A stretch of 51,322 bases of DNA from an uncultured Thermoproteaceae archaeon (GTDB lineage Archaea > Thermoproteota > Thermoprotei > Thermoproteales > Thermocladiaceae). Numbering within the stretch: position 1 is the first letter of the stretch; each line of letters starts with the position of its first letter. Where the stretch lies: assembly GCA_964575955.1 (NCBI GenBank), contig CAZNTG010000004.1, forward strand, positions 1-51,322, written 5' to 3'. Of this stretch, positions 3,330-38,473 are shown piece after piece. A program made the translations under genes and the position numbers. Under the pieces are notes generated by a model. It did no database searches. It was not told the origin of the DNA and worked only from the letters and a program-made list of their open reading frames with translations.

Positions 3330-4346
3330 TTACCTTAGACGCATCAAGTGATTCCTTATTAGATTTCTATATATAGTGCCTGTATATCTAAATTGTGCAA
3401 CACCTCTGTTAAATGTTGGTACTTTAAATACTACAAGTCTATCAATATCATATCCATACATCACAACATATCCAACATCTCTCAAAACATTCTTAGAAAA
3501 TATTGTCTGTATAATCTTCCTGTAATATGATACTTCTCTCCTATCTCTAGAGTAGTGTACTAGTACAACTTTATCAAAACCATATTCAACATATTTCATA
3601 ACTGCACTAATACCTCTATGCAATGTCTTATCAATATCTACAAACTTGTGTGCTATAATATCTCTCTCAGTAATAATCACTAGATCTACAGGAAAGTCAA
3701 GTACTAGAGGTATAATACTTGGTATATGTCTATAATTTTCAATATGTTGTCTATATTTTGAGAAGAAGTAATTTTCAAGTTTCTTAGCAATATTTGCATA
3801 AAGTTCCTGTAATGTTGAATACATTTCTAACATTGGCATGAATGGTAGTAGGATATGCATTTCTAATATTGGTATATCTACACCATATGTAGATAATTCA
3901 TCAATCTTATCTAAAATATCTAGACCATCTTCTAAATTTATAGATGCATGTTCTGTAAGTTTCATAATACCAGGAATGTATATGTATTTTCCAAATTTTG
4001 AACATAATTTTCTATTTTCTAACTCTTCAAATATTAAATCAATATCAACTATAGACTTATTTTTTCTTATAGCTGATCTATTAATTATTAATGATCCTGA
4101 TGGTGTTAGATATGCCTTACCATCAATTCCAAATATTGTTCCTGTATATATCCATGACCATACTATCTTCTTAAGATCATCTCTCATATTTAACACAGTT
4201 CTCAATATTGTTAGTGGATCTACTATCTTGTCTACTATCTCACTATCAATCTTGTATGCTTTCTCAATATTTTCTAAACTACCTGATGTGATAAGTCTTA
4301 TTATCTCCTCAAGTTGTGTATCGTTGATGATGAAGGCTGAGCTCAT
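3330..4346 (-). CDS. Hypothetical protein with C-terminal PD-(D/E)xK-like fold
   Basis: 338-aa ORF; VDLVII..YVEYGFDKVVLVH resembles a restriction-endonuclease-like core. Confidence 0.6.
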   Translation of the reverse strand: MSSAFIINDTQLEEIIRLITSGSLENIEKAYKIDSEIVDKIVDPLTILRTVLNMRDDLKKIVWSWIYTGTIFGIDGKAYLTPSGSLIINRSAIRKNKSIVDIDLIFEELENRKLCSKFGKYIYIPGIMKLTEHASINLEDGLDILDKIDELSTYGVDIPILEMHILLPFMPMLEMYSTLQELYANIAKKLENYFFSKYRQHIENYRHIPSIIPLVLDFPVDLVIITERDIIAHKFVDIDKTLHRGISAVMKYVEYGFDKVVLVHYSRDRREVSYYRKIIQTIFSKNVLRDVGYVVMYGYDIDRLVVFKVPTFNRGVAQFRYTGTIYRNLIRNHLMRLR

Positions 4347-4374
4347 GATAGGTGATTAGTTATGAGCAGTCTGA
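4327..4374 (+). ncRNA. Box C/D guide sRNA 1 (tRNA-directed)
   Basis: ATGATGA-AGGCTGAGCTC-ATGA-tagg-TGATTA-GTTATGAGCAGT-CTGA; guides complementary to tRNA D-arm AGCUCAGCCU and anticodon loop GCUCAUAAC. Confidence 0.85.
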
Positions 4375-4490
4375 TCTCTACCTGTTGATCATTATTTTTA
4401 TACCTTTCTACACATATATTACTTGGTATCATTCTTTAACACTTTTATTAGAGATTTCAAATTACTTATATGTCTTATTCTAACATGCAT

Positions 4491-6149
4491 CTACTCCATA
4501 TATGCACCCTTAGATGCTGATGTTGCTTTTTCAGAATACTTCTTTAAGATACCTCTCAACTTTCTTTCAGGAGGTTTCCACTCTCTTCTTCTCTTCTCAA
4601 GTTCATCCTTATCAACTTCTAAATCTATTCTCTTAGAGTTGATATCTATACTTATGATATCTCCATCCTTGACAAGTGCTATAGGACCACCAACATATGC
4701 TTCAGGACTTACATGACCAACCATTATTCCACGTGTAGCTCCTGAAAATCTACCATCAGTTACTAGTGCTACTTTATCTCCAAGTCCTTGACCAACTATG
4801 GCTGCAGTTATCTGCAACATCTCTCTCATTCCTGGACCACCTCTAGGACCTTCATACCTTATCACAACTACAGTTCCAGGTTCAATCTCTCCACTAAGTA
4901 CTGACTTTACAGCTTCTTCTTCAGAATTGAAGACTTTTGCATAACCTCTAAATTTTCTTTGAGTTATTCCAGATGTCTTAACTACAGCACCTTCAGGTGC
5001 TAACGTTCCTCTAAGTATAACTAATGCTCCACTCTTCTGTATTGGATCTTCTACAGGTCTAATAACTTCTCTATTCTTAGGTTCAGGTGCTTCTCTAATG
5101 ATATCACCAATTTTCCTACCTGTAACTGTCAATACATCGAGATTTATAACACCAATCTTTGAAAGCTCCTTCATTAAAGCTGGTACACCACCAGCTTCAT
5201 CAAGATCAACAACGTAGTATGGACCTCCTGGAGATAGTGGTGATATGTATGGTACCTTTTCCTGCATCATATCAAAATCGTCAAGTTTCAACTCAACACC
5301 TGCCTCATGTGCAATTGCTAGAAGGTGAAGTACTGTATTTGTTGAACCTCCAAGAGCTAGATCGACAGCAATAGCGTTTAGAAAGGCTTCTTTAACAAGT
5401 ATATCTCTAGGCTTAATATTTTCATAAACTAACTTCACTATCATTCTACCAGCTTCACGAGCTTTAGAGAGCTTTCTACTAGATATTGCAGGTATTGTTG
5501 ATGAGTATGGAAGTGACATTCCTAAAGCTTCTGAAAGTATGTTCATAGTATTTGCAGTGTAGAGTCCAGCACATGATCCAGGTCCAGGACATGCTTTTCT
5601 CTCAATTTCTTCAAGTTCTTCAATTGTTATCTTACCTCTAGAGTATGAACCTACAGCTTCAAATACATCTTTAATATCAACTCTACGACCTTTAAAATAT
5701 CCAGGTATCATAGGACCACCATTAACATATATTGTAGGTATGTTCAATCTTGCAGCAGCCATCAACATCCCTGGAACAACTTTATCACAATTACCTACTA
5801 ATACTAGACCGTCTAGTCTATGTGCTTCTGCAATTATCTCAATACTATCTGCAATTACCTCTCTACTAACTAGACTATACTTCATCCCTACATGACCCAT
5901 AGCAATACCATCACATACAGCTATTGTGTTGAATTCTATCGGTACACCACCAGCTTCTCTAACACCTTCTTTAATTGCTTCAACAATCTTTCTAAGATGT
6001 ACATGTCCTGGTACAATCTCATTAAAAGAGTTTACAATACCTATTATAGGCTTTTTAAAATCATCATCACAAAAACCTACAGCTCTTAATAATGCTCTAT
6101 GTGGTGCTCTATGATAACCTTCAACTACTTCTCTACTTCTCAAATTCAC
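4491..6149 (-). CDS. ilvD: Dihydroxy-acid dehydratase
   Basis: [41 protein letters not shown] motifs. Confidence 0.97.
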
Positions 6150-6203
6150 GATTCTTTAAAAATTTTGAAAAAATATTTAACTAGTTCCTCAAAGAGTATA
6201 CAT

Positions 6204-6253
6204 GTGATGAGGGTCCTAAGTGATGAGTGGTGATTAAGAATCCACGCTGCTGA
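6204..6253 (+). ncRNA. Box C/D guide sRNA 2 (probably tRNA-Leu)
   Basis: GTGATGA-GGGTCCTAAGTG-ATGA-gtgg-TGATTA-AGAATCCACGCTG-CTGA; intergenic, AT-rich TATA-like element about 25 nt upstream. Confidence 0.88.
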
Positions 6254-6568
6254 TCATATTCCAAGTGCTGCTCTTAGAATAGATAGATAGTCAACAGCTT
6301 CATACTTAACTTCTTTAAGTGTTGGAATTTCCATAATTATCTTCTTAGTCATCTTCAATCTAAGTCTATTGAAGTAATCACGAATTTGATTTACAAGATT
6401 TGAAGTTACTAAAACAACACCAACATCTTCGCGATCTTTAACATCTTCCAAAATCTTAATAACATCCTCACCCTTCTCAACAATTATACCATCAAATCCT
6501 AGAAGTCTAAATGTGTATACAGTATACTTATCACCAACTATCAATACCTTAACTTGGCCAGTAGGCAT
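6254..6568 (-). CDS. atpF: A/V-type ATP synthase subunit F
   Basis: KVLIVGDKYTVYTFRLLG..EIP..RAALGI pattern, 104 aa. Confidence 0.85.
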   Translation of the reverse strand: MPTGQVKVLIVGDKYTVYTFRLLGFDGIIVEKGEDVIKILEDVKDREDVGVVLVTSNLVNQIRDYFNRLRLKMTKKIIMEIPTLKEVKYEAVDYLSILRAALGI

Positions 6569-6613
6569 ATCTTATCTAACTAAGTCTATAAATTTCCAAT
6601 TTTAAGTTTATCA

Positions 6614-7174
6614 CTACCAAGGTACATCTTTCACTCTCATTAAATAAGCTATAAAGTTTGTAAATAGGTGCATAAATATTGTAAATATTGGAGCAATAAT
6701 ATACACATATAGATCATATATATGCAGTATGTAGTACATGTAGAGAAGTGGAAATATTAGAAAATCTAACTGATCTAATATTGGAGCAGGAGCACCTCTA
6801 GCAAGACCAAGTCTTCTCTTAATAAATGCACCAACAAGATCACCCAACAATGCTAGGGTAGATAGTATGAGAACATTAACTGGATCTAGAATTAATATGT
6901 TGAGATTTTTAATAACATTCTCAGGAACTATAGCTAGAATTATTGAATATATTATCAAACTTATAGAATATCCTGATAAGACACCACCAATAAAACCTTC
7001 AATAGTTTTACCATCACCAAGAATTCTTCTACCATCAATAAAATTTTTACCAAAATCTATAGGTGTACATTCTCTATTTAATAATTTAGATATTACAGGT
7101 GGTGAACCATTAGCAACATATTCAGGAATTAGTAATATTATTGTTTTTATAAATTCTCTCAATATATAGTTCAT
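6614..7174 (-). CDS. carS: CDP-archaeol synthase
   Basis: YVANGSPP, PIDFG, GDGKTIEG, GDLVGAFIKRRLG, LDQLDF. Confidence 0.92.
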   Translation of the reverse strand: MNYILREFIKTIILLIPEYVANGSPPVISKLLNRECTPIDFGKNFIDGRRILGDGKTIEGFIGGVLSGYSISLIIYSIILAIVPENVIKNLNILILDPVNVLILSTLALLGDLVGAFIKRRLGLARGAPAPILDQLDFLIFPLLYMYYILHIYDLYVYIIAPIFTIFMHLFTNFIAYLMRVKDVPW

Positions 7175-7578
7175 TTTTCAACTTCATGACTCTTAAGTAC
7201 GTGTACTAGTGCAGATTTTTTAGATGTAAATTCTCTACCACATATAGTGCAATACCATACCCACATACCATTTCTCAATACTGCAACTACAAGATGTTCA
7301 CGTATATGTCTCAAAAATTCTCCCATAGATTTCAACTTGACATTACATATATCACATACAACATTCTTACCTGTAACTCTACAATGCTTAGATAGGTGTA
7401 TTGCAAATATCTCTGAAGAAACTTCCTGACCACATTTAGGACATTTAACAACTCTTGGTGGTGTTGATAAACTTCTCAAAGCTTCAACAATCTTAACTAC
7501 ATCATCACCAACATAGTTCAACACTGGACATACAACCACATTTGTAAGCTTCTGAACTTGAATACCTGTCTCTGACAT
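7171..7578 (-). CDS. Triple C2H2 zinc-finger protein
   Basis: CPKC..HLSKH, CDIC..HIREH, CTIC..HVLKSH. Confidence 0.8.
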   Translation of the reverse strand: MSETGIQVQKLTNVVVCPVLNYVGDDVVKIVEALRSLSTPPRVVKCPKCGQEVSSEIFAIHLSKHCRVTGKNVVCDICNVKLKSMGEFLRHIREHLVVAVLRNGMWVWYCTICGREFTSKKSALVHVLKSHEVEK

Positions 7579-7625
7579 GTACGACTAGATGAGCATACAT
7601 ATCTAGATTTATAAATTTTGAAATT

Positions 7626-8243
7626 TTGAGAAAAAACATGACAACAGGAATAGCAATGCCATCATGGTCAAGTGGATTTATCGGTCTAGTTTTAGGAAAT
7701 TTAGAAATATTTAATGAAACTATCGAATATGTAAAAAATTACTGCTATGTAGATGATGTAGATCTTGTAAAAGTTCCAAAATATAAGAGGACATGCGTTA
7801 TTAGAGGAATTAGGAGAGTACTTGAAAAGTATTTAAATGATGTTAGAAAAATTCTAATTCATGTAGATATTTACGGTATTATCAATAAGCTATGTACTGA
7901 GTATAGAGTTAGTAGATTGTTAATAATTAATAAAGCATATGACTATGTTATTGATATTTTAGATAGTTTAAAGTTGATAGATGGAGATGTCTATGTTGAT
8001 TCTGAATTTGGTAATCATATATCTAGAGATAGACATTTTAAAATTTATGTATCTGATGAAATTTCTATAGTTAAAGTTGCTAGATTTATAGCATCTCTAC
8101 CTGAGGTATCTCAATGTAGTATTTTTAATAATTATAGAAGATTTATCTTAGATACTGAAGATTTTATTGTAGAATTTTACGATATTAAAGATAGTTTATA
8201 TTCTAAAATTCTTGAAGATATTCATAAAATTAAATCTACATGA
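7626..8243 (+). CDS. Hypothetical protein
   Basis: 205-aa ORF filling the gap between genes; ATG start possibly at 7638. Confidence 0.6.
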   Translation: MRKNMTTGIAMPSWSSGFIGLVLGNLEIFNETIEYVKNYCYVDDVDLVKVPKYKRTCVIRGIRRVLEKYLNDVRKILIHVDIYGIINKLCTEYRVSRLLIINKAYDYVIDILDSLKLIDGDVYVDSEFGNHISRDRHFKIYVSDEISIVKVARFIASLPEVSQCSIFNNYRRFILDTEDFIVEFYDIKDSLYSKILEDIHKIKST

Positions 8244-9003
8244 AGTATCTAGATACTTCTTCTTTAGATGTTGATCTTAGTATAGATTCTACACTTCTAG
8301 CTCTATCATATGCCTCATCTAGCTCTATTCTAATTCCTACAATATTTGCAAATTTTTCAAGAAGCATAACTGTACCTCTCCAATCTGCTATATTGTATCT
8401 TGCAAGTACATTATAGTACTCTAGGTATGGTATGTGTGCCCATAGTCCTATCGTCTTTATACCACTTTCTCCAAATCTTCTAAGCATTACTGTATAGAAA
8501 CTGCATGGTCCACGATAAGTTACAGTTCCTGTATCTACACTTCTAGCAATTTCAATACATTCTCTATGTGATGCAACTACTGATATCTTAATATTTGGAC
8601 TTTCATCAAGCATACTTCCAAAAGTTATTACTAACTTCACATCATGCTTCTTTGCAATTTCTAAAAAATCTTCTACAAGACTATTCCACATTCTATGTGG
8701 TTCATGACCTCTAACTACTAGAAGTTTTGTATTTCCTATCTGTGTAATACCAACATCTAGATAGGGCATTGATAGTGTACGTATTTCACCATCTACAATA
8801 TCTACATAAGGTCTAGATAGTCCATATATGAATACTTCATCTGGATCTACTCTATATATTATATCAATACCATACTTATGTACTATATATCCAAGACTTG
8901 TAGATGCAGCTCTCCCAGCATCAGGCCAACCTTCAAAACCCATAATCATTATTTCGCACTTATCAGAACTCTCCTTCACAGTTTTCAAAACTCTCAAACT
9001 CAT
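8236..9003 (-). CDS. PAC2/proteasome assembly chaperone family protein
   Basis: GFEGWPDAGRAAS, SRPYV, GHEPHRMW, GLWAHIP; start moved to ATG 9003 because the upstream extension lies in sRNA 3. Confidence 0.8.
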   Translation of the reverse strand: MSLRVLKTVKESSDKCEIMIMGFEGWPDAGRAASTSLGYIVHKYGIDIIYRVDPDEVFIYGLSRPYVDIVDGEIRTLSMPYLDVGITQIGNTKLLVVRGHEPHRMWNSLVEDFLEIAKKHDVKLVITFGSMLDESPNIKISVVASHRECIEIARSVDTGTVTYRGPCSFYTVMLRRFGESGIKTIGLWAHIPYLEYYNVLARYNIADWRGTVMLLEKFANIVGIRIELDEAYDRARSVESILRSTSKEEVSRYFM

Positions 9004-9041
9004 ACTAGAGATAGAGTCTAGATAGCGTATAAATATTAGTT

Positions 9042-9091
9042 TCAGTCCATGCAAGTCTCGCTCACTAATCGCACGGTTGATCCTTCATCAT
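9042..9091 (-). ncRNA. Box C/D guide sRNA 3 (16S rRNA 5' domain; sR1-like)
   Basis: ATGATGA-AGGATCAACCGT-GCGA-ttag-TGAGC-GAGACTTGCATGGA-CTGA; guides match conserved 16S CGGUUGAUCCU and CCAUGCAAGUC; TTTAAA at 9118-9123. Confidence 0.93.
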
Positions 9092-9127
9092 CTAGATATT
9101 GGATTTTTCAAAAATTCTTTAAATATG

Positions 9128-9484: not shown

Positions 9485-9531
9485 AATGTTCAGTATAGAG
9501 GAAGTGTTAAACATATTTTAAACATCTCTTC

Positions 9532-9580
9532 ATGATGAAAATCCGCGGAACTGAAAAATGAAGAACGCCTGCGTCGCTGA
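9532..9580 (+). ncRNA. Box C/D guide sRNA 4
   Basis: ATGATGA-AAATCCGCGGAA-CTGA-aaa-ATGAAGA-ACGCCTGCGTCG-CTGA; near-canonical boxes, GC-rich 12-nt guides. Confidence 0.92.
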
Positions 9581-10351
9581 TTAGGTATGGTATGTAAATT
9601 TTGATAATGCAGAACTACAAGCTATAAATAGGAGTATAGGCTCCACTATCGACAGTACAGACTCTATAAGTGCTACCTCCCATATATATGGCATAAACCA
9701 GAGTAGTATAAATTCTACTATTGACAATACTACAACTACTATAAATAGAACCTCTCTAGTATCATCTTTCAATTTTGCAAGACCGATGAGATAGCCAATC
9801 CATGATATGAAAAATGATGCAACTTCAAATACAATTAACAATATCTCTGTTATCACAACTTCATAACTTACAAACATTACTATAGTTGGTAAGCGTAATG
9901 TTGATATAATATATATCGATAGTATAGGTATTACTACTGCCAGTATTGAAAATACTATTCCAAATATTATACCATATTTCAATAGTGAGTATGGTGTTGA
10001 ATATTTTAAAGGATCATATTGTCTAAATCTATTGAATGAAGGTATTAGATACTTAAATACTGCTATGATAATTAGTATAAGTATGATTAATATCAACACT
10101 ACAATTAGGAAGACGTATTGTGAAACACTACGAATAACATTATATAACATATCTTGAATGAACTTTACATATCCTGTAGAAGTAGTAGGATTGTACGTGT
10201 ATGAAGTTACTGATGTAAAACTTATTAATGCACTATATATTGCTGAGGAAGCTGTGTAGAAGAATGCTATACATAGTGCTACAACTACTATCCAAATTAA
10301 AGCATACCTCTTTAAGAGGCGTAATCCCTCAATAAGTCTATCAATACTCAT
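9581..10351 (-). CDS. Multi-pass membrane protein (DUF973-like)
   Basis: About 6 hydrophobic segments; N-terminal EGLRLLK. Confidence 0.6.
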   Translation of the reverse strand: MSIDRLIEGLRLLKRYALIWIVVVALCIAFFYTASSAIYSALISFTSVTSYTYNPTTSTGYVKFIQDMLYNVIRSVSQYVFLIVVLILIILILIIIAVFKYLIPSFNRFRQYDPLKYSTPYSLLKYGIIFGIVFSILAVVIPILSIYIISTLRLPTIVMFVSYEVVITEILLIVFEVASFFISWIGYLIGLAKLKDDTREVLFIVVVVLSIVEFILLWFMPYIWEVALIESVLSIVEPILLFIACSSALSKFTYHT

Positions 10352-10420: not shown

Positions 10421-10472
10421 GTGATGTAACTTCAGCGGGTCTGAATATGTGATGATGGGTTGGAGTTGCTGA
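10421..10472 (+). ncRNA. Box C/D guide sRNA 5
   Basis: GTGATGT-AACTTCAGCGGGT-CTGA-atat-GTGATGA-TGGGTTGGAGTTG-CTGA. Confidence 0.9.
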
Positions 10473-13222: not shown

Positions 13223-13224
13223 AA

Positions 13225-13608: not shown

Positions 13609-14595
13609 ATGAGTAGTAAAAATCTCAACACTGGTCTATGTATACTTGTAGCAGTTCTATGGGGTATACTTGGTCTTTTTATAAAACTTCTAGATCCAAT
13701 AATACAACCTACATATCAGGTAACTGTCAGATATGTACTATCTCTAATATCTTTCATAATAATAATGACAATATCTTGGATATACGGTGCTAAAGGTCTT
13801 GGAACATACTACATAACGCACTTATCATATCTTAGAATTGGTAGATTAGCATTTTCAAATATTGTAGTTATAATACTTGCATCAATATTTGGATTTGGAA
13901 TATCAATACCAGCATTCTTCATAGCAGTATCAATATGTGGAGTATACTTCACATATATAGTAGGTATAGGATTGACAGTTATCGTGACGGCACTTATGAA
14001 AGTATTATCAGGTTCTGAAATATTTACAAAATATAAACTTGGATATATAATACTACTACTAACTATCATAGTAGTAACAACATACATATCAAAGATTTCT
14101 TATACAGGTTTGATCTATGTTATAATATTTTCAATAACTTGGGGTCTATATCTATGGCTTGTTGGTAATATTAATAGACCAGGTAGAGATTTCATATCAA
14201 AACTCTACACAACATGTATAGATATGAGTATTAGCTTAGCTATAGGTTTAATATCATTAATAGCATTCTTTCACATAGGTTTAGGACATGTATTTAGAAG
14301 TATCTTAAGATCACTATCTAATATCTATACAATATTTCTAATGGTTATAGGTATAGTACTACTATGCACAGTACTTCCATACATTATCATATGTATAGTC
14401 TTGAGTATGGATCCAACACTTGTTGTTAATTTCTCAATTATTCAATATTTAGAAGTTATACTTGCACTACTGTTAGGAATATTCTATTTTCATGAACTTC
14501 CGATTAACAATATAACGATAATGTATATCATATTTTCAATAGTTAGCCTTGTACTATGTATGTATCTTAGAGCACTTGATATTGGTAAGAGATGA
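13609..14595 (+). CDS. EamA/DMT-family transporter
   Basis: About 10 TM; AVLWG, QYLEVILALLLGIFYFHE. Confidence 0.8.
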   Translation: MSSKNLNTGLCILVAVLWGILGLFIKLLDPIIQPTYQVTVRYVLSLISFIIIMTISWIYGAKGLGTYYITHLSYLRIGRLAFSNIVVIILASIFGFGISIPAFFIAVSICGVYFTYIVGIGLTVIVTALMKVLSGSEIFTKYKLGYIILLLTIIVVTTYISKISYTGLIYVIIFSITWGLYLWLVGNINRPGRDFISKLYTTCIDMSISLAIGLISLIAFFHIGLGHVFRSILRSLSNIYTIFLMVIGIVLLCTVLPYIIICIVLSMDPTLVVNFSIIQYLEVILALLLGIFYFHELPINNITIMYIIFSIVSLVLCMYLRALDIGKR

Positions 14596-14644
14596 TCAGT
14601 TCATGAATGGGTAATCATCTATCATCAAGGCCAGAGATCATCAT
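14596..14644 (-). ncRNA. Box C/D guide sRNA 6 (23S rRNA), directly downstream of rpl3
   Basis: ATGATGA-TCTCTGGCCTTG-ATGA-taga-TGATTA-CCCATTCATGAA-CTGA; D guide matches conserved 23S CAUGAAUGG. Confidence 0.88.
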
Positions 14645-15783: not shown

Positions 15784-16983
15784 ATGAAGATTACAAAAAT
15801 GGTAAGATTAGATAATAGAAAGTCAACATCAACATTCTACGCAACTATAAGTATTGCATATGCTGTACAGTTTATTGGTGTATCATTAAAGTTGTATAGT
15901 ATTAGTGCATCAGGAATTGTTATAGGAATAGCATATCTACTATTCAATCTTGCAGCAATGATTGGAAGTATAGTAATACCAAGATGCTTATCAAAGTACT
16001 ACAATATACTAACAGCAATATCTATAGTGATGATAGCAATATCATGCTACATAATATACATATCTAGATATGTATTACCAATAATCTTAGGATTTATAAT
16101 GACAGGATTCTTCTACTCAACTCTAGGACCTGCATTGACATACCTCTTAACTGAGGAGAATGAAGATATGAAAGTTTCTGTAAAAATTTTAACAATACCA
16201 CAAAATTTAGGTTGGTGTTTAGGTTTTCTAATGGGTGCACTTTCTTGTCTATTTACAAATCTAAGTACTGCAATACTACTTTCAGCATCTTCAGCAATAA
16301 TATCAATACCATTTGCAATACCTATAATAAAAAACTTGAAGAAGTATGTGATGATTAGAGAATTTAAGAAGAATTTAAATATTGAAAGATTGAAGAGGAG
16401 TATATTAATACCATACTACGCATCAGTATTCTTAACATTCTTAGCAGCTAGTACATTCTTCACATCACTACCACCACTACTTGCAAAGCTTGGTTTAAAA
16501 AACTATGAAATATATTTTGCAAGATTTATAGGATCTGTAGTTGCAGTTCTATCATACATATATACAATATCTGCAATGCTTGAAAAAGTCTCAACAGTAC
16601 TTCACAAAATATCTAACTACCTAATTGTTAGAGGTGTAGGATTTCTTCTACTATTAACAGCATTCTACCTAAGTGGAATTGAACTTTTCATAGATGCATG
16701 TATAATATTGATAATAATTGGAATAACTTGGAGCTACTTAAACACAGGTATAAAAGTCATAGTATTAAACTTTGGTGAAGAAGCACATAAGATATATGGA
16801 GATACAACATTTCTAATATGTCTAGGATTTATAATTGGATCTTTCATAGGTGGAGCACTACTAGACCTATACACAATACTAATACCTATAGTGTCTTCAA
16901 TACTTGCATTTACAGCAGCAATATCATACACACTAGCCTCTAAAAGAGCATTAATATCAGACATGGGTTCCATCATCACATAG
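15784..16983 (+). CDS. MFS transporter
   Basis: About 12 TM in two halves, 399 aa. Confidence 0.75.
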   Translation: MKITKMVRLDNRKSTSTFYATISIAYAVQFIGVSLKLYSISASGIVIGIAYLLFNLAAMIGSIVIPRCLSKYYNILTAISIVMIAISCYIIYISRYVLPIILGFIMTGFFYSTLGPALTYLLTEENEDMKVSVKILTIPQNLGWCLGFLMGALSCLFTNLSTAILLSASSAIISIPFAIPIIKNLKKYVMIREFKKNLNIERLKRSILIPYYASVFLTFLAASTFFTSLPPLLAKLGLKNYEIYFARFIGSVVAVLSYIYTISAMLEKVSTVLHKISNYLIVRGVGFLLLLTAFYLSGIELFIDACIILIIIGITWSYLNTGIKVIVLNFGEEAHKIYGDTTFLICLGFIIGSFIGGALLDLYTILIPIVSSILAFTAAISYTLASKRALISDMGSIIT

Positions 16984-17007
16984 TCAGATCCGTCCCCAAC
17001 TCTTCAC
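16957..17007 (-). ncRNA. Box C/D guide sRNA 7, antisense to MFS gene 3' end
   Basis: GTGAAGA-GTTGGGGACGGAT-CTGA-ctat-GTGATGA-TGGAACCCATGT-CTGA; TTTAAA at 17037-17042. Confidence 0.88.
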
Positions 17008-19973: not shown

Positions 19974-20023
19974 TCAGTCTCAATCGCCATCTTCACCGCT
20001 TCAGAAGGTGGGAGTTTCAGCAT
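19974..20023 (-). ncRNA. Box C/D guide sRNA 8
   Basis: ATGCTGA-AACTCCCACCTT-CTGA-agcg-GTGAAGA-TGGCGATTGAGA-CTGA; variant C box, canonical spacing. Confidence 0.82.
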
Positions 20024-22274: not shown

Positions 22275-23105
22275 ATGGTTAAGGTTGGTATAGATACTAG
22301 GATATTCAAGTATTATGATGTTGAATATGCAATATCTAAAATATCTAAATTTTTCAAAATAGTTGAAGTATGTGCAACACATATAAAAAGACTTGAAAGA
22401 AGTTGTTTAACGATAGGAGATATTGGAAATATTTTAAATAGACTGCGTAAAGATTATGGTGTAGATATTGCTCAGATACATGCACCTTATGGTGATATTG
22501 ATGAGTTGTTGACATATCCAAGTGAGAGAGAACATGCAATATCTAGAATATTGAAGTATGTAGAACTTTGTAATATTGTTGAATGTCCTGTACTTGTAAT
22601 GCATGTACCATATAGAAGACCTATGAGTAATGAATCTTATATAGACTTTATTAGATGTTTAGAAAATTCAACAAGATATTTAATGCGTAGATTAGATAAT
22701 TTGTTAAGAAGTTATTCTGTTAAGATAGCTTTTGAGAATAGACTTGAACAATGTTTTGGCTGTATTCCTGATGATATTATTAAGATAATATCTGAGGAAG
22801 GTGTTGAAAATTTTGGAATATGTATAGATACAGGACATGCAAATGTTAATAAACTTAATATTGAAGATATTGTTAAAAGATTTCATAGATATATAATTGC
22901 GACACATGTACATGATAATGATGGTATTCAGGATAGACATATGCCACCTATGATGGGTACAATAAATTGGAGAGGTATAATAGACGTATTTAGACGATAT
23001 TGTAGAGATGTTCCATTAATACTTGAAGTTGAGCCTATATGTGATAAATGTTGTGAAAATATGTTAGAACTATGCTACACTATCATTACAAGATTAGTCA
23101 GTTAA
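22275..23105 (+). CDS. Sugar phosphate isomerase/epimerase (AP-endonuclease-2 TIM barrel)
   Basis: HAPY, AFEN, DTGH, HVHDN..H metal ligands. Confidence 0.87.
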   Translation: MVKVGIDTRIFKYYDVEYAISKISKFFKIVEVCATHIKRLERSCLTIGDIGNILNRLRKDYGVDIAQIHAPYGDIDELLTYPSEREHAISRILKYVELCNIVECPVLVMHVPYRRPMSNESYIDFIRCLENSTRYLMRRLDNLLRSYSVKIAFENRLEQCFGCIPDDIIKIISEEGVENFGICIDTGHANVNKLNIEDIVKRFHRYIIATHVHDNDGIQDRHMPPMMGTINWRGIIDVFRRYCRDVPLILEVEPICDKCCENMLELCYTIITRLVS

Positions 23106-23150
23106 CCGAGCGTATCTTCATACACTATCCGTAGGGCAACTCCTCATCAC
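23098..23150 (-). ncRNA. Box C/D guide sRNA 9
   Basis: GTGATGA-GGAGTTGCCCTA-CGGA-tagtgt-ATGAAGA-TACGCTCGGTTAA-CTGA. Confidence 0.85.
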
Positions 23151-32284: not shown

Positions 32285-32409
32285 TAAAAATATTTCTTTT
32301 CCTAAAACAATATCTCAATCCTTCTTTTAAAACACTATTTTAAAGTCTAGATAATACCTGAAACAGTAGAGTTACACTTAAAAACTCTACACACTATAAA
32401 AAACACGCT

Positions 32410-35112
32410 ATGAGAAAACTCGCAATTCTAACACTACTAACACTACTAGCAACAATATGCATCATAATACCCTTAGCAAAAGCAACAATAACAACAACAG
32501 CAACAGCATATAACAGCATCATACTCATAGGAGGAAACACATTAAGCATATCCAAAGTAGCAAATATTACACTGACTTCATCAACACCATTAATAAATCA
32601 ACAACTGAACTTAACAATAATACCAATAACAAAGCTACCCGCACAAATAAGATGTGCTGTTGTTTTCAAAAACTCGACATATACATTTGGAACAGCAACA
32701 ATAGTTATAGGTCCGTCAACAATATCAAATAGTACAACTGCAACAGTAACGTACACTACAACGGTATATGTGATTGCATACTGTAATATCACTAACCTAC
32801 CAGTGGGTAAGTATCTATTCAATGTAATATTATTTAACCAGACATCTGGAGAAAAACTAAGTAGTACAGTCGTTGAGAAGGATGTGGAGATTGGTTTGTG
32901 GGTTGATGTTTCTCCACGTTTCATACCTGTTAAAGAGGGTGGTTATGTAACCGTTGTTATCTATGGTAATGGTACTGTTGGTAACGATGTTGTTAATGTA
33001 ACAATACCATCAGGTGTTGAAGCAGTATACTATGGATATAGCTATAAGTATGTTGGTCCTGGTCAGGGTGATGGTGTTACTGTTAATTGGAATCCTGCAA
33101 CAAAGTCACTAATAGTTTCGGATGTTGACCAGTATGAGAAGGTTGTAGCTAAACTATTCCTAAATACTACTAATGTTGGAGTATATGGTATAATTGTAAT
33201 AATTACTACACCGTCAGGATACAAATATAACTATACCATACCAATAGTGTTCTACAATAAGTCTATAACTTTGACATATTCGACAACGTATACTCCAACA
33301 GCAAATCACGAAAACTATACTATCGAGACAACTATACAGTTTGATAATGGTGTACCATCTGGAGTCTTACCATCTGCTAACGAGATTATAGTATATCCAT
33401 ACCTATATAATGGTAGTGTTGTGACTGGTCAGTTAAAGAGTATTAATGTTCTAGAATTTGAGAATCCAACAGTGAAAGCTTCAATGACTATTTTTGCTGG
33501 TAAGGTCTTGCTTGCTAATAAGTCTTTAACAACAACATACATGAACATGTTGACAAGTACACCAACACTTAAGGCAATTATAAATGCTAGCACACTAACT
33601 CCAGAACAGAAAGAAGCTTTAGAAAAGCAGCCAAATGTTACCGTTACTGTAGTAGTATCAGACTCACTAGGTTATAGTAGTAAGACTGTTGAATATCGCG
33701 TACTTGACATATTACCACCACGTATTAGCGGATTTGCATTGAAGTTTAATACTACAAGTGGTCGTGTGTTTAACGTACTTAAGGAGAATGGCATATACAT
33801 AGTTCCAAACACAAGTACGCAATTCATAATGTACATCAACGTGTCAGCATACAGAAATATTAAGCATGATAACGTAACACTACCCTATCCTGTTGCAATA
33901 CTACTACCACCAGTAGCGTACATAAATGGAACAGAGACCACATCTATATCATGTACAATAGAGAAGCCAAACATGACTATTGGAGAGACAGGCGTAAACA
34001 TTACAGAGTTCAAGTGTGTTATAAGTGTTTCTAACCTTAAGGCCTTGAATAACATATCTATAAAGTTCTCAGACAACTGTAGTAGGTATGTATGGTTTAA
34101 CATTACTGTAGAGAAGAAGTATATACCACCACCAACACCACCAACATACACACCTGTAAAGGAGGTTGGATATGTTGTTGGTGTAGCTAACCTAACTGCA
34201 AAATCAGAGATCGGAATATACGAGTATAACATCACCATAATATTACCAAGATCGAACTACACAATACTCATACCGAAATCTGTAATAGATAGATCCGAAT
34301 ATGTGCTATACCTAAGTAATGGTAGTAGCTACGTGCTTGAATCATTACTAACTCCTGGAAATACAACATTATACAGTATGAAGGAGATGTTAAAGAAGAA
34401 TGGAAGTCTAATTGTTGGTTATGGAGAGATTATAGTTGTACCTCCCGCTAGAGTAGAATCTGTTAAGATGATTATAAGAGCCATAGACTATGCTGGAGAA
34501 CAGAGTAATGCTACAACAGTAGAGATATCATATGGAGTAACACCAGACGCCTACTACATACTATACCTACCTGCTGGTTGGGATGCATTTTCAATACCTG
34601 GAGTATTAGTAGGAGCATGGAACAACATATTGAAAGATGTTGCCAAGTATGTAGTCGAAGCATTTAGAATACCGACAGGACCATTCACAATGATAACTCC
34701 ATGTAATCTAGCAACAGCTAAACCTGAAGAAGTTATAGGTTATGAAGTTAAGCCATACACATTCATCGTATATGCATCTAGAGATGCAGTGTTCGTAATA
34801 CCTGTAGTATACTATACAGAGGTTGGACTACCATATAGAATAACAGTGAATGTTAAAGCTGACATGTATAACCTAATACCAGCAGCACTACAACTTGAAG
34901 CAGTAAATATTACAAGAATTGCAATGCCTAGAGAGATGCAAGCATGGATTTATGCTTGGGATGTTGAGGCTCATAGATTTGTACCAGTAGCAACATACAT
35001 GTACGGAACATGGTACACTACAATACCAATGACACTACCAATTGTGCCTCTAGGAACACCACTAGTACTATTCACAGTAGAGTCAGGAACAGTAACAGTA
35101 TTGCCAACATAA
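32410..35112 (+). CDS. Large secreted surface/S-layer-like glycoprotein 2
   Basis: Signal peptide ending AKA, many sequons, shares GPGxGDG..WNP and C-terminal domains with gene 1. Confidence 0.75.
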   Translation: MRKLAILTLLTLLATICIIIPLAKATITTTATAYNSIILIGGNTLSISKVANITLTSSTPLINQQLNLTIIPITKLPAQIRCAVVFKNSTYTFGTATIVIGPSTISNSTTATVTYTTTVYVIAYCNITNLPVGKYLFNVILFNQTSGEKLSSTVVEKDVEIGLWVDVSPRFIPVKEGGYVTVVIYGNGTVGNDVVNVTIPSGVEAVYYGYSYKYVGPGQGDGVTVNWNPATKSLIVSDVDQYEKVVAKLFLNTTNVGVYGIIVIITTPSGYKYNYTIPIVFYNKSITLTYSTTYTPTANHENYTIETTIQFDNGVPSGVLPSANEIIVYPYLYNGSVVTGQLKSINVLEFENPTVKASMTIFAGKVLLANKSLTTTYMNMLTSTPTLKAIINASTLTPEQKEALEKQPNVTVTVVVSDSLGYSSKTVEYRVLDILPPRISGFALKFNTTSGRVFNVLKENGIYIVPNTSTQFIMYINVSAYRNIKHDNVTLPYPVAILLPPVAYINGTETTSISCTIEKPNMTIGETGVNITEFKCVISVSNLKALNNISIKFSDNCSRYVWFNITVEKKYIPPPTPPTYTPVKEVGYVVGVANLTAKSEIGIYEYNITIILPRSNYTILIPKSVIDRSEYVLYLSNGSSYVLESLLTPGNTTLYSMKEMLKKNGSLIVGYGEIIVVPPARVESVKMIIRAIDYAGEQSNATTVEISYGVTPDAYYILYLPAGWDAFSIPGVLVGAWNNILKDVAKYVVEAFRIPTGPFTMITPCNLATAKPEEVIGYEVKPYTFIVYASRDAVFVIPVVYYTEVGLPYRITVNVKADMYNLIPAALQLEAVNITRIAMPREMQAWIYAWDVEAHRFVPVATYMYGTWYTTIPMTLPIVPLGTPLVLFTVESGTVTVLPT
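34576..35015 (+). repeat. Second copy of the three exact blocks
   Basis: Direct base-by-base comparison with 31748-32193. Confidence 0.93.
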
Positions 35113-35286
35113 TCTTAGTGTAAATAGATCTTTCTTTTTATATAAAACTTACATTTTCTTTAATAAATCCTTGTTTTTGTCTTTCTCCTTCTATCCTTTC
35201 ATGTTTATATTTTTCATTGTTTATATATTGTTTAATTGTCTTATCGAAGTGGTAATTCTTAAAAAGTCTTTTATGAAGTATAACGC

Positions 35287-38016
35287 ATGGGTATGAGAAG
35301 TATCCTAGTAGTTGCTATGCTGTTAGCTACATGTCTAATTGCTTTATCGACACTAACTGCATATGCAACGTTAATTACAGGTACTGTCTATGTAAATAAG
35401 TCTGGAACTCTTGTAAAGCTTGGTAATGTTGTCTCACCTAAGTTATTTGTTTTGAAGTTTGTATATTCAGGATTTGTTAAGCCCGTTGAGATATATAGTA
35501 ACTCTACATATATAGTAAATCTGCCTGAAGGTGCTGTTGTGTCAGTATATATAGCACAGGCAATGAATACTTCAAAGGCTGTACAAGCACTATTCTACTA
35601 TTTAGGTATATTAAGTAAGACGTATAAAATACCACCTCAATTTATTGTTGGAGTTCCTATAGGACCGATAAATATAGTTGTCAGTTATTCAGATTTGATG
35701 AAGATTATGCCTGTATTTCCAAAGTTTAAGTTCTCTATAGTTAAGATGTTGCCAGAGACATGTGTTGTAGGTAAGGAGTATACAGTAGAGGTGTTGGTTT
35801 CCAATGTTGGTAATGCTACTGGTACGGCAATAGTGGCACTATATCTGAATAGTACACTTGTAAAGTCTAGGAAGGTTAACGTAGCTCCAGGGAAGTCTGT
35901 CACTGTAGATCTATCAGTAGTATTTAACAAGACTGGTATTTACAATATAACTATTACAGGTAATGGAAAGGCAATACCACCAACACCAACATATGTGAAG
36001 GTTATTAAGATAACAAAGCCTCAATTCAAGGTTGTGAATGTCTCTGTACCAGAGAAATTCTATGTTGGAGTTCCTGGAACTGTAAAGGTCATTGTCCAGA
36101 ATACTGGTACAGTTCCTGTTACAGCAAACATAACAGTATTAGCATTAGTCAAGGTAATAACTGGACTAACAGTAGTTGGAAGAAATAGTACACTAGTATA
36201 CTTAATGCCAGGCGAAACTAAGGTAGTAAGCGTAGAATTGACCTTTGAATCTCCCGGAAAACCAGCATATGTTAAGGTTATTGCAAACAGCACACCACCA
36301 TATGAGAAGGAGTTTCCAATAACACTAGTAGTGCCTCCAGTAACATTGGTGATTGGAGCTGAGAGAAAGTACAAGCTCTATGTAGGCCAAGAATTAACAA
36401 TACCACTAATACTTGTCAACATGACAAAAGTTTACGGTATTAGTGTAAATATTATGTATAATAGGTCAGTAGTGAAGGTATTAAATGTCACGAGAGGCAA
36501 TTGTAGCTTTGCAAAGTTTATGAAACATATAGTTAACGGAACTGTCAAAATAGTAGCTATATCCTTCTTTAAGCCTCTTGGTGTTTACAAATGTGTAATG
36601 TATATGACTATTAAAGCTGTTAATACAGGAGAGACAAGAATATACGGTAATGGAACGATAACCACATATTCTGGAATACCATTACCTATGCATGTTATTC
36701 CAACTACTGTTGTTGTTACTAAGCCTAGTGCTAGAATTGTTGTTGTTAACTTCACAGTTCCACCTAAGGCGTATGTTAATGTTCCGTTTCCTGTTCATGT
36801 AGTTTTGAAGAATGTCGGCACAGTTCCCGGTACTGTGAATGTGACTGTTGTTGCTGATAGTGTTGTGTGTGGTTCAGCAACTGCATATATTAAGCCTGGC
36901 ATGGTTTGGTCTCACGTATTTACATGTAGGTTTACTAGTCCAGGTATACATACTGTCAAGTTGTTACTGAATGGTACTGTTGCTAAGGCAGCAACAGTTA
37001 CTGTATCTAAGATTAGTGTATTAGCATCTATCAAACTAATACCAAAGATGTACGTGTATTGGGCCGGCTACCCAGTAATGGTTACTGTCAGCGTTAAGAC
37101 ACTTGTACCAATCTCTGAGCTAAATGTTACTGTAGTGATGATGCAACCACCATTAAAGCCTAAGGTTGTGATTAGTAGAGTAATTCCATCACCAACACCT
37201 GGCAAGGTGTATAACATATCTAGTAGAGTAATATTACCAACATTCACAACTAAGGGTGCACTTGTTGTATGTGTAAATGGTGCACCTGTAAATGCTACAA
37301 AGTTCATGACTACTGGAGTTGCTGTAATATTGAAGCCATACACATACGAGCTAATATCAGTACCACTAGTACCAAAGTCACCAATACCAAGCATACCAAC
37401 ACCACCACCAACAGGTTCAGCACCAATTAACCTACCAACACTAGAGCAAGTATACTCACTAGCTATTGATGCTGTTACAGGTGAGAAAGTTTCAGGAATT
37501 TGGAACCTAGTACAGATATACTACTACAATACTATAGCTACAAAAGCACCATACTACATACCTTGGAGTCCAACAGCACCAGTTAGACCAGGTATGGGAT
37601 TTGTAGTATATTCAACATATCCAGACACAGTAGTACTAATAATGCCAATCAATGTAACAGAAATGAGTCCAAAGGAGATTATGGCATTAATACACTACTC
37701 ACTAGCAGTAGCATATGTACCATTCCCAGGAACAACAGCAGGCTGGATGATTGCAGGACCAATAGGACTTACACCAATCAAGCTACTACCATCACCTGTA
37801 GAAAATGTAACACTATACTACACAGAGTCAAAGACGTCTGAGAAATGGACAACAATAATACCAGTAACAGTTGGAGATTACGTAGTTCCAGGTAAGGGAT
37901 ATTGGATATTCTGGAGTATAGTAACATATCACGCAATTCACGGTAATATGAAGATGTATCTAGGGCAGATGTTTAAGATGATTCAAATGTTGAAAGGAGG
38001 AAAAGTAGTGACATAA
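35287..38016 (+). CDS. Secreted protein with CARDB-like Ig repeats and a cohesin-like domain
   Basis: Three V.V.N.G repeats (SNVGNA, QNTGTV, KNVGTV); VGQELTIP..YGISVNIMYN..V..G cohesin-like segment; Pro-rich linker; PGKGYWI C-terminal motif. Confidence 0.72.
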   Translation: MGMRSILVVAMLLATCLIALSTLTAYATLITGTVYVNKSGTLVKLGNVVSPKLFVLKFVYSGFVKPVEIYSNSTYIVNLPEGAVVSVYIAQAMNTSKAVQALFYYLGILSKTYKIPPQFIVGVPIGPINIVVSYSDLMKIMPVFPKFKFSIVKMLPETCVVGKEYTVEVLVSNVGNATGTAIVALYLNSTLVKSRKVNVAPGKSVTVDLSVVFNKTGIYNITITGNGKAIPPTPTYVKVIKITKPQFKVVNVSVPEKFYVGVPGTVKVIVQNTGTVPVTANITVLALVKVITGLTVVGRNSTLVYLMPGETKVVSVELTFESPGKPAYVKVIANSTPPYEKEFPITLVVPPVTLVIGAERKYKLYVGQELTIPLILVNMTKVYGISVNIMYNRSVVKVLNVTRGNCSFAKFMKHIVNGTVKIVAISFFKPLGVYKCVMYMTIKAVNTGETRIYGNGTITTYSGIPLPMHVIPTTVVVTKPSARIVVVNFTVPPKAYVNVPFPVHVVLKNVGTVPGTVNVTVVADSVVCGSATAYIKPGMVWSHVFTCRFTSPGIHTVKLLLNGTVAKAATVTVSKISVLASIKLIPKMYVYWAGYPVMVTVSVKTLVPISELNVTVVMMQPPLKPKVVISRVIPSPTPGKVYNISSRVILPTFTTKGALVVCVNGAPVNATKFMTTGVAVILKPYTYELISVPLVPKSPIPSIPTPPPTGSAPINLPTLEQVYSLAIDAVTGEKVSGIWNLVQIYYYNTIATKAPYYIPWSPTAPVRPGMGFVVYSTYPDTVVLIMPINVTEMSPKEIMALIHYSLAVAYVPFPGTTAGWMIAGPIGLTPIKLLPSPVENVTLYYTESKTSEKWTTIIPVTVGDYVVPGKGYWIFWSIVTYHAIHGNMKMYLGQMFKMIQMLKGGKVVT

Positions 38017-38065
38017 CAGGAAGCTAGGTCATAAATATAAACTAACTTCAAAAAACTTCTTTCTC

Positions 38066-38419
38066 ATGAATAAAATCTCCACAATCTTTCTCATTCTCGT
38101 ATTTCTCATCCTCTCAATACTTTCCCAATCTATACTATCTTTATCAAATATTTCTATTCCACCTCCACCATCTAAATCAAATATTTATAAGGGTAAAAAT
38201 CTCACACAGATATATAATAAGATTCTAAATGTCACATATGGAAAAGGTGTTACAAATATTACTAAAACTCAAAATAAGACAGCTCTAACTACAAGTGTCG
38301 TTGTAGGTCGTGGTAAGTTAAATCTCACTACTAGTCTACTAGTAGTAGGTATTGTATGTATAGTTGTGATAGTTGTTGTAAGTGTGGTAGTGATAATATT
38401 TGTTAGAAGGAGGAGATAG
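38066..38419 (+). CDS. Small membrane-anchored glycoprotein
   Basis: Signal peptide, sequon-rich spacer, C-terminal TM followed by RRRR. Confidence 0.7.
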   Translation: MNKISTIFLILVFLILSILSQSILSLSNISIPPPPSKSNIYKGKNLTQIYNKILNVTYGKGVTNITKTQNKTALTTSVVVGRGKLNLTTSLLVVGIVCIVVIVVVSVVVIIFVRRRR

Positions 38420-38422
38420 GTA

Positions 38423-38473
38423 ATGATGTATCCTAGACCAGTCTGACTTGTTGATGATAAATCTGGGTTCTGA
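38423..38473 (+). ncRNA. Box C/D guide sRNA 10 (tRNA-directed)
   Basis: ATGATGT-ATCCTAGACCAGT-CTGA-cttg-TTGATGA-TAAATCTGGGTT-CTGA filling the gap between convergent stop codons. Confidence 0.88.

Follow-up and report, generated by a model that had tools for sequence, protein, structure and literature searches.

The window, which is the whole stretch of 51,322 bases that was analysed, is part of the 1.52-Mb genome (32% GC) of an uncultured heat-vent archaeon, probably a member of the Vulcanisaeta/Caldivirga family of the Thermoproteales as judged from its relatives; the term "hyperthermophilic crenarchaea" used in an earlier sequence-only reading is therefore apt. The window includes ten short elements that, read directly at their loci, have the structure R-UGAUGA (box C), guide, D', loop, C', guide, CUGA (box D). 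They are 48-53 nt long, and in each of them both guides measure 11-13 nt. No C box departs from the consensus by more than one mismatch and each is preceded by a purine, the D box is exactly CUGA throughout, and the D'-C' loop is 3-7 nt long, or 4-7 nt in the nine elements that have no more than two mismatches in each internal box. The G+C content of the elements is 0.39-0.50 and that of the 200-nt flanks 0.23-0.36. The sequence-only reading had placed ten elements of this layout and size at these loci, nine of them within 19 kb and most of them GC-richer than the background, and this description was borne out, the nine spanning 18.8 kb between positions 4327 and 23150.

In RNAs of this family, as established for other members, the C/D pair would fold to a terminal kink-turn and the C'/D' pair to an internal kink-loop, and L7Ae would bind each motif before Nop5 and fibrillarin. 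The guide of about 12 nt upstream of D' and that upstream of D would each pair with rRNA or tRNA, where fibrillarin would act on the nucleotide opposite the guide's fifth position from the box (N+5) and methylate its ribose. The genome encodes fibrillarin (348 bits), Nop5 (236 bits) and L7Ae (106 bits), all above the Pfam cut-offs. SSU and LSU rRNA genes are absent from the assembly and from six genomes of the same genus and, because of their absence from the assembly, the rRNA targets given below rest on the rRNAs of other genera, namely those of four family relatives and three order relatives.

The first element (4327..4374, + strand; C AUGAUGA, D' AUGA, C' UGAUUA, D CUGA) runs antisense to the initial 20 nt of ORF 3330..4346(-), given the start as called. 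Its D' guide has a 10-nt pairing with the D arm of eight of the organism's own tRNAs, with tRNA U12 as the predicted site, its D guide pairs over 9 nt in the anticodon stem-loop of two tRNA(CAU) and would have C32 as N+5 nucleotide, and orthologs are present in genomes G002 and G004 and in the sister genus G008. The element at 6204..6253 (+; C GUGAUGA, D' AUGA, C' UGAUUA, D CUGA) has a TATA-like hexamer at -37..-29 and a D box that adjoins the stop codon of the convergent ORF 6254..6568(-). Its D' guide is invariant in orthologs from G002, G003, G005 and G006; no firm target was found for it, the longest contiguous match being 8 nt. The element at 9042..9091 (-) is distinguished by degenerate internal boxes (D' GCGA, C' GUGAGCG), both of which are kept in all five aligned orthologs, which come from five same-genus genomes and are 87-94% identical; it also has a TATA-like hexamer. 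Its D' guide has an 11-nt pairing with the extreme 5' end of the relatives' 16S rRNA, with N+5 at about U8, and its D guide can form 10 Watson-Crick pairs and one G-U pair around nt 52 of the same molecule, where about U52 is the predicted site. The element at 9532..9580 (+; C AUGAUGA, D' CUGA, C' UGAAGA, D CUGA), whose D box adjoins the stop of the convergent ORF 9581..10351(-), has an ortholog in G006 and a D guide that could pair around nt 1780 of the relatives' 23S rRNA (11 Watson-Crick pairs and one G-U, 9 contiguous). That at 10421..10472 (+; C GUGAUGU, D' CUGA, C' UGAUGA, D CUGA), with orthologs in G002, G004 and G006, could pair through its D' guide near nt 1253 of 23S rRNA (10 Watson-Crick pairs and one G-U) and, weakly, through its D guide near nt 2058.

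Four of the remaining elements are on the minus strand. The element at 14596..14644 (C AUGAUGA, D' AUGA, C' UGAUUA, D CUGA) lies 11 nt downstream of the gene for ribosomal protein L3 on the same strand and adjoins the stop of the convergent ORF 13609..14595; its D guide has a 9-10 nt pairing near nt 2110 of 23S rRNA, and orthologs are found in G002, G003 and G005. The element at 16957..17007 (C GUGAAGA, D' CUGA, C' UGAUGA, D CUGA) overlaps in antisense the last 27 nt of the MFS ORF 15784..16983, has a TATA-like hexamer and an ortholog in G002, and shows tentative targets only, at about nt 1226 of 16S and about nt 1460 of 23S rRNA, with one mismatch each. The element at 19974..20023 (C AUGCUGA, D' CUGA, C' UGAAGA, D CUGA) has a TATA-like hexamer as well and is followed at a distance of 52 nt, on the same strand, by the RNA 3'-phosphate cyclase gene; its orthologs (G002, G003, G005 and G006) show no change in either guide, and the element's tentative 23S targets are a 9-nt match near nt 2264 and one at the 3' end near nt 3048. 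The element at 23098..23150 (C GUGAUGA, D' CGGA, C' UGAAGA, D CUGA) overlaps in antisense the last 8 nt of ORF 22275..23105 and has orthologs in G002, G003, G004 and G006 in which both guides are kept; no firm target was found for it, as its 9-nt match to the 23S rRNA of one relative is at the level that controls reach. The last element (38423..38473, + strand; C AUGAUGU, D' CUGA, C' UGAUGA, D CUGA) takes up the 54 nt that separate ORF 38066..38419(+) from the convergently oriented citrate synthase gene 38474..39652(-). Its D' guide has an 11-nt pairing with the D loop and arm of all three of the organism's own tRNA-Gly, with G19 as the predicted N+5 nucleotide, its D guide has a weak pairing with the T arm of these three tRNAs, and orthologs are present in G002 and G004. 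Upstream of this element, the ORFs at 28865-38016 had been considered as candidate RNA polymerase subunits, an assignment that was rejected by Pfam.

For each of the ten elements orthologs were found in congeneric species or in the sister genus. Boxes and guides hardly vary across species in any of the ten cases, the flanks cannot be aligned, and the neighbouring genes are only 66-76% identical. This conservation, together with the box geometry, the complementarity of guides to tRNA and rRNA and the presence of the three protein genes, supports the identification as box C/D guide sRNAs made in the sequence-only reading. We therefore regard the ten, with little room for doubt, as ten separate archaeal methylation-guide genes that are part of a genome-wide family of about 155-175. 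At the gathering scores an Rfam scan reported none of the ten; the best match under threshold was that of 9529-9581 to sR5 (RF01304), with 37.6 bits against a cut-off of 40, and the remaining matches to sR families, mostly confined to the boxes, scored 16-25 bits against cut-offs of 37-45.

Since UGA-rich boxes are short and AT-rich DNA yields similar strings, the elements could in principle be chance motifs. The frequency of matches was determined with a box-geometry scanner that allows one mismatch in C and two in each of D' and C', demands an exact D box, and accepts guides of 10-14 nt and loops of 2-8 nt. It recovered nine of the ten elements and zero other sites in the window, where about 0.2 matches would be expected from shuffled sequence, and missed only the element at 9042 with its degenerate internal boxes. 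A model, named R1, that was built from the ten elements scored them at 19.5-26.3 bits and everything else in the window at 7.1 bits or less, so that no eleventh element was detected there by this search; the relaxed scan described below recovered 9042 as well. Over the whole genome the scanner found 162 candidates, whereas ten dinucleotide shuffles of the genome gave 4-10 matches each (mean 6.6), which leaves about 155 candidates after subtracting chance. The candidates also agree in features outside the scanner criteria: 155 of the 162 have a purine before the C box, the guide length has its mode at 12 nt (97 and 105 of 162 for the two guides), and the guides have 52% GC against 31% in the flanks. 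A pattern relaxed to leave the internal boxes free does produce 35-51 matches in shuffled genomes; with all four boxes required the excess is as given above, and all ten window elements are conserved islands in other species. Together these data make an origin by chance scarcely credible.

The same searches bear on how large the family is. R1 found 86 further loci in the genome at E<=1, of which 79 coincide with scanner matches. The relaxed scan gave 172 matches, 141 of them already known, and adds only about 13 GC-rich candidates, and a scan for variant D boxes gave 0 additional matches. From these counts the family is estimated at about 155-175 genes, or about one per 9-10 kb. The sequence-only reading had pointed out that the local rate of one per about 2 kb would, if genome-wide, amount to an exceptionally large repertoire; the part concerning size stands, as about 155-175 predicted genes are at or above the published maxima of 127-128, and the part concerning rate does not, because 162 candidates in the genome imply the lower density. 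An unprecedented repertoire of about 700 guides at the local density is favoured by the local count only; the scanner is conservative, and it and R1 recover few sRNAs in Pyrobaculum-like relatives, for which about 88 per genome have been published (PMC6009581), so divergent sRNAs could be missed. Against this stand the small yields of the relaxed and variant-D scans and the 0.5-3.2 matches per 10 kb on other contigs outside the window, and we consider the larger repertoire very improbable.

The crowding of nine elements between 4 and 23 kb had been given in the sequence-only reading as a possible hotspot, which could have arisen by local duplication, by insertion of a mobile sRNA-like element or by selection for co-location. 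No other 19-kb stretch of the assembly is as dense as this one (8 scanner matches, 9 with the element at 9042), the window holds 10 elements where the genome rate would predict 5.9 (Poisson P = 0.075), and the order is at least partly kept in G002, where contig C19 carries orthologs of the elements at 14596, 16957, 19974 and 23098. However, uniform random placement reaches the observed maximum with P = 0.31 for 162 loci, 0.09 for 163 and 0.14 for 174, and the hotspot is therefore not supported. The ten elements share no sequence outside the boxes (alignment A1), only 4 guide pairs genome-wide are at least 10/11 identical and none of them is from the window, and no repeats or mobile-element signatures were found around the elements. 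A true hotspot is thus improbable, and the local crowding is best explained as the high end of an essentially random distribution over a gene-dense genome. The ten elements are genes of an ordinary kind in unusually large number, with no special local cluster. A different question is whether all ten act as methylation guides. Some might instead be L7Ae-binding kink-turn RNAs that assist rRNA folding as chaperones or regulate adjoining genes by antisense or translational control, and L7Ae-mediated regulation, which has reportedly been proposed earlier (PMC5539422), was counted in favour of this possibility. Genome-wide, 67 of the 324 guides have a perfect antisense match of at least 10 nt that covers N+5 in the 16S or 23S rRNA of the four family relatives, and three controls gave 7, 7 and 4; with matches of at least 9 nt, 123 guides match rRNA and 17 match tRNA, compared with control values of 32-38 and 3-4. 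For a single guide, 9 nt of pairing has no significance, since the antisense controls of 3 of the 20 guides in the window attain this length as well. Firm targets were assigned on this scale to three of the ten elements, 9042 (D', 11 nt), 38423 (D', 11 nt) and 4327 (D' and D, 10 and 9 nt), while the matches of 9532, 10421, 14596, 19974 and 23098 are tentative, being at control level, and 6204 and 16957 have no target at 9 contiguous pairs among the organism's own tRNAs and the relatives' rRNAs. The seven elements in these last two groups could thus be taken as candidates for another function, as could the six that lie at convergent ORF 3' ends and the one with a possible 5'-end overlap; in Pyrobaculum, 28% of guides are orphans (PMC7994747). 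On the other hand, guides with no assigned target are as conserved across species as those with one, both guides of 23098 and of 19974 being examples, and the anatomy is that of canonical dual guides. Such conservation fits a conserved RNA target that is unseen because the organism's own rRNA is missing. A non-guide function for some of the ten is unlikely.

It is a near-even proposition, leaning to the doubtful side, that this genus of the Vulcanisaeta/Caldivirga family has the largest C/D guide complement of any archaeon, with about 155-175 genes, more than 100 per Mb, common to all six sampled species. If this is true, ribose methylation of its rRNA and tRNA should be denser than that of Methanopyrus kandleri and Ignicoccus hospitalis. 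The genome of I. hospitalis is about 1.3 Mb, and at this size its guide density would be similar to the density of about 100 per Mb found here. The largest published sets, as tabulated, are those of I. hospitalis (128) and M. kandleri (127) (Dennis et al. 2015, PMC4644070 Table 1). Both are, like the organism studied here, vent hyperthermophiles with small genomes and well over 100 guide genes; their sets are RNA-seq verified, whereas the present one, about 20-35% higher in number, is a prediction only, and the M. kandleri boxes are much more degenerate (PMC4644070). For Pyrobaculum, 526 C/D sRNA genes in 110 families have been described from six species (Lui et al. 2018, PMC6009581). They agree with the present case in the order (Thermoproteales), the dual-guide anatomy and a share of guides directed at tRNA, and the Pyrobaculum genes lie close against ORF 3' ends or overlap them, with some tandem or convergent sRNA pairs. 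Unlike Pyrobaculum, the present organism belongs to another family and genus and has a GC content of 32%, its boxes are more canonical, with CUGA as D box throughout and no yield from the variant-D scan, and its predicted genes are more numerous, about 155-175 against about 88 per genome (526/6), in a smaller genome. Homology at the level of sRNA families was not shown, the best Rfam match, to sR5, being under the cut-off.

R1 gave 60-94 matches in same-genus genomes, 87 in the two f3 genomes, 47 in G008, 7-27 in other genera of the family and 5-14 in f2. Within the initial 400 kb, the scanner found only 3 matches in G024 and 8 in G010, and the relaxed scan 4 and 25. Since these numbers are few compared with the about 88 published per Pyrobaculum genome, the search tools used here are tuned to the present genus, and a comparison of repertoire sizes across genera was rejected as uncalibrated. 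Literature searches on box sRNAs in Vulcanisaeta and in Caldivirga returned incidental mentions only. The catalogue, with ten genes here and about 160 genome-wide whose coordinates the scanner supplies, amounts to a predicted rRNA and tRNA methylation map for a lineage so far represented by metagenomes alone. Should the count hold, the upper range of guide-RNA load in hyperthermophiles is extended, and an AT-rich genome can bear such a load; no new mechanism is revealed. Because the curated Rfam thresholds miss these genes, annotations of similar genomes probably omit the largest family of RNA genes that these genomes contain.

Several of the firmest predicted targets are tRNAs. Haloferax sR-tMet is a tRNA-directed C/D guide, and the 4327 D guide on the anticodon stem-loop of tRNA(CAU) and the 38423 guides on tRNA-Gly would be of the same type, although the predicted site of the former is C32 and not the wobble nucleotide C34. 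One guide can serve several tRNAs, as the eight matches of the 4327 D' guide illustrate. Positions in the tRNA anticodon loop and T stem are also targeted by Pyrobaculum sRNAs (PMC6009581).

In six of the ten cases a convergent ORF ends directly at the element or within it. C/D sRNA genes against or overlapping ORF 3' ends have been described for Pyrobaculum (PMC6009581), and the same arrangement is given in a review (PMC7994747). Antisense overlap of an sRNA with an ORF 5' end was not seen in Pyrobaculum by Lui et al. (PMC6009581). The 5'-end antisense overlap of the element at 4327, which was counted as an adverse observation, holds only if the called ORF start is right. A TATA-like hexamer at -37..-29 precedes 56 of the 162 genome candidates, compared with 354 of 5000 random positions. 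On this sequence evidence, about a third of the family is predicted to have its own TATA-like promoter, and the rest would probably be transcribed by riding neighbouring transcripts.

The elements starting at 4327, 6204, 9042, 9532, 10421, 14596, 16957, 19974, 23098 and 38423, proposed by a sequence-only reading to be box C/D guide sRNA genes, were all found at these positions when the sequence was read. Each one, on its proper strand, begins with a purine followed by a UGAUGA-like C box and ends with CUGA, with a first guide of 11–13 nt, a second guide of 12–13 nt and a D'-C' loop of 3–7 nt in between. They are also GC-richer than their surroundings (G+C 0.39–0.50 versus 0.23–0.36 in the flanks), which that reading had noted for most of them. 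A scanner based on box geometry (no more than one mismatch in the C box and two in each of D' and C', D exact, summed penalty ≤3, guides of 10–14 nt, loop of 2–8 nt) recovered nine of the ten and zero other sites in the window. Element 9042 escapes it as its internal boxes are degenerate, and the same boxes are kept in all five aligned orthologs. R1, a sequence-only covariance model derived from the ten elements, was run over the window without filters and scored them at 19.5–26.3 bits, a circular result since they are its training set; the next-best site of this unfiltered search reached only 7.1 bits, and therefore the window holds no eleventh element. The anatomy together with the conservation, the excess over chance and the guide complementarity described below uphold the identification, and the ten elements add new members to a well-known RNA class.

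Blast analysis of window nucleotides 4000–23500 against 20 family genomes revealed gene matches of 63–78% identity and isolated 50-nt islands of 83–94% identity located exactly on the sRNA positions. Orthologs were fetched and aligned for all ten elements, at least one for each: those of 4327 come from the same-genus genomes G002 and G004 and the sister-genus genome G008, and the numbers for the others are four (6204, 19974 and 23098), five (9042), three (10421 and 14596), two (38423) and one (9532 and 16957). In all ten alignments the boxes and guides are near-invariant, the D'-C' loop is variable and the flanks are unalignable. In G002, synteny is retained for at least part of the run of sRNA genes between 4 and 23 kb.

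The scanner found 162 matches in the whole genome (G000), versus 4–10 (mean 6.6) in each of ten dinucleotide-preserving shuffles made in 2-kb blocks, which rules out an equal motif frequency in shuffled sequence; at a penalty of ≤2 there were 135 real matches versus 0–2 per shuffle. Features outside the scanner criteria that agree with the C/D sRNA family include a purine before the C box in 155 of the 162, a sharp mode of guide length at 12 nt in both positions, and a G+C content of 52% in the guides versus 31% in the flanks. R1 detected 96 loci genome-wide at E≤1, the ten and 86 others, 79 of which coincide with scanner matches. Near-identical guides are rare, with only four pairs identical at 10 or more of 11 positions, one of them a single locus parsed twice, and nearly all candidates are distinct genes. 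The only clear duplicate pair consists of G000:C6:590109-590155 and C6:339963-340009, whose guides are identical or one base apart. The internal boxes of the set are lineage-specific in character: of the 162 candidates, 70 have UGAAGA and 42 have UGAUGA as C', and 65 have CUGA and 45 have CAGA as D'. Genome-wide, 24 pairs of neighbours are separated by less than 150 nt, among them back-to-back convergent pairs with D boxes 0–3 nt apart, such as C2:39615/39664, C6:552960/553014 and C6:590059/590109. Two triplets of candidates have 0–25 nt between members (G000:C9:111225-111409 and G000:C12:20403-20577).

The occurrence of nine elements within 19 kb had been taken to indicate either a local hotspot or, if one gene per 2 kb held genome-wide, an exceptionally large repertoire. 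No other 19 kb of the assembly is indeed as dense as the stretch 4328–23098. When the same number of loci was placed at random, the probability of an equal or larger maximum was 0.31 for the 162 scanner loci (8 in the stretch), 0.09 when 9042 was added by hand (163 loci), which is a biased addition, and 0.14 when GC-rich relaxed matches were added everywhere (174 loci); therefore a hotspot is not demonstrable. As for the repertoire, the actual density is one scanner match per 9.4 kb and not one per 2 kb, and would resemble that of I. hospitalis for a genome of about 1.3 Mb in the latter. Subtraction of the chance level from the scanner matches leaves about 155. A relaxed scan with exact terminal boxes and a free interior yielded 31 further sites, of which about 13 are GC-rich and have recognisable internal boxes; the others are attributed to chance because the shuffles give 35–51 matches for the relaxed pattern, and a genome scan allowing a variant D box added zero sites. 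The predicted repertoire is thus estimated at about 155–175 genes in a 95%-complete genome. While the extraordinary density was not borne out, this total is one of the largest that have been predicted in archaea.

Dennis et al. 2015 (PMC4644070, Table 1) list 128 C/D sRNA genes for I. hospitalis, 127 for M. kandleri, 88 for P. calidifontis, 61 for S. acidocaldarius, 52 for T. tenax, 26 for N. equitans and 7 for M. maripaludis, so that the number predicted here is at, or about 20–35% above, the published maxima. For Pyrobaculum, Lui et al. 2018 (PMC6009581) give 526 genes over six genomes. R1 and the scanner find few candidates in genomes of the family that includes Pyrobaculum-like relatives and in a Vulcanisaeta-like genome, though Pyrobaculum has about 88; both tools are tuned to their own genus and counts in other genera are uncalibrated, therefore no claim of fewer sRNAs in sister genera is made. 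Within the genus, R1 gives 60–94 matches in six incomplete genomes, so that a high predicted C/D load characterises the genus as a whole.

Since the assembly has no 16S or 23S rRNA (nor do any of the six same-genus genomes examined), those of four family relatives were used as targets, with the same rRNAs antisense, reversed or complemented as controls; intron-bearing rRNA genes occur in the sister family. Perfect antisense matches of at least 10 nt covering N+5, the target nucleotide paired to the fifth guide position from the box, were found for 67 of 324 guides genome-wide versus 7, 7 and 4 in the three controls. With the cut-off lowered to 9 nt, 123 guides matched rRNA (controls 32–38) and 17 matched the organism's own tRNAs (controls 3–4), and 108 of the 162 sRNAs had at least one such guide versus 35–38 in controls. 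The tRNA counts exclude a tRNA-Gln whose supposed 'intron' would span roughly 2.4 kb (G000:C6:159453-161934), called by ARAGORN with introns allowed; this call and that of a tRNA-Pyl are probably artefacts. Among the ten, the D' guide of 9042 has an 11-nt match at the very 5' end of the relatives' 16S (N+5 about U8) and the D guide is complementary to 16S around nt 52 with 10 Watson-Crick pairs and one G-U, and this element is predicted to be a typical double guide with firm targets. The D' guide of 38423 is complementary over 11 nt to the D loop in each of the three tRNA-Gly (N+5 G19 by manual count), and its D guide pairs weakly with the T arm of the same tRNAs. The 4327 D' guide matches 10 nt in the D arm of eight tRNAs and its D guide matches two tRNA(CAU) over 9 nt of their anticodon stem-loops. 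The predicted tRNA targets of the 38423 D' guide and of both 4327 guides are firm assignments. A role of the 4327 D guide in Cm34 formation was rejected as the N+5 nucleotide counted on the tRNA is C32. Single 9-nt matches are not significant for the ten because the antisense controls reach 9 nt in 3 of 20 guides; the predicted 23S sites of 9532, 10421, 14596, 19974 and 23098 are tentative, and 6204 and 16957 had no match at 9 nt in the relatives' 16S/23S or the own tRNAs.

Of the 162 candidates, 56 carry a TATA-like hexamer 29–37 nt ahead of their C box, versus 354 of 5000 random positions (7%), and so do four of the ten (6204, 9042, 16957 and 19974). Elements lacking it sit where co-transcription with neighbours is plausible; 38423 begins 3 nt past an ORF and 14596 is 11 nt past the L3 gene. 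Six of the ten pack against the end of a convergent ORF: 6204, 9532, 14596 and 38423 directly abut its stop codon with no gap, and 23098 and 16957 overlap its last 8–27 nt. Such packing has been reported for Pyrobaculum (PMC6009581) and in a review (PMC7994747). Element 4327 overlaps antisense the first 20 nt (4327–4346) of ORF 3330..4346(-) if this ORF starts at 4346; no other in-frame start was seen by eye in the next ~19 codons, and the ORF has no Pfam match. Lui et al. report that they did not find this arrangement at ORF 5' ends in Pyrobaculum (PMC6009581). On the minus strand, window 18842–20023 comprises element 19974 and, 52 nt downstream of it, the gene for RtcA, RNA 3'-terminal phosphate cyclase. 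The adjacency is suggestive, given the circularisation of C/D sRNAs described for hyperthermophiles (PMC3695527), and may be a coincidence.

The assembly, of which the window is one entire contig (C4), has 1,521,267 bases in 15 contigs, with 32% G+C and 94.7% completeness by marker genes, and the organism appears to represent an uncultured genus in the Vulcanisaeta/Caldivirga family of the Thermoproteales. All sampled words of the stretch are present in one sequencing run labelled hydrothermal vent metagenome, which may be the source sample. Fibrillarin, Nop5 and L7Ae are all encoded in the genome. The fibrillarin and Nop5 genes adjoin each other in many archaea; here they are non-adjacent, on separate contigs (G000:C6:311294-311974 and G000:C3:84191-84874). 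On the plus strand at window 28865–38016, three large ORFs (1139, 900 and 909 amino acids) follow one another and may encode envelope or surface proteins; the only Pfam match at E≤1e-5 was a CARDB domain in the third, and a related-locus search found no relative of the 1139-amino acid ORF. The window also includes, on the plus strand, a tRNA-Pro(CGG) at 28708–28784 and an intron-bearing tRNA-Leu(CAG) at 48913–49015; the latter is missed by default ARAGORN and detected by Rfam and by ARAGORN when introns are permitted.
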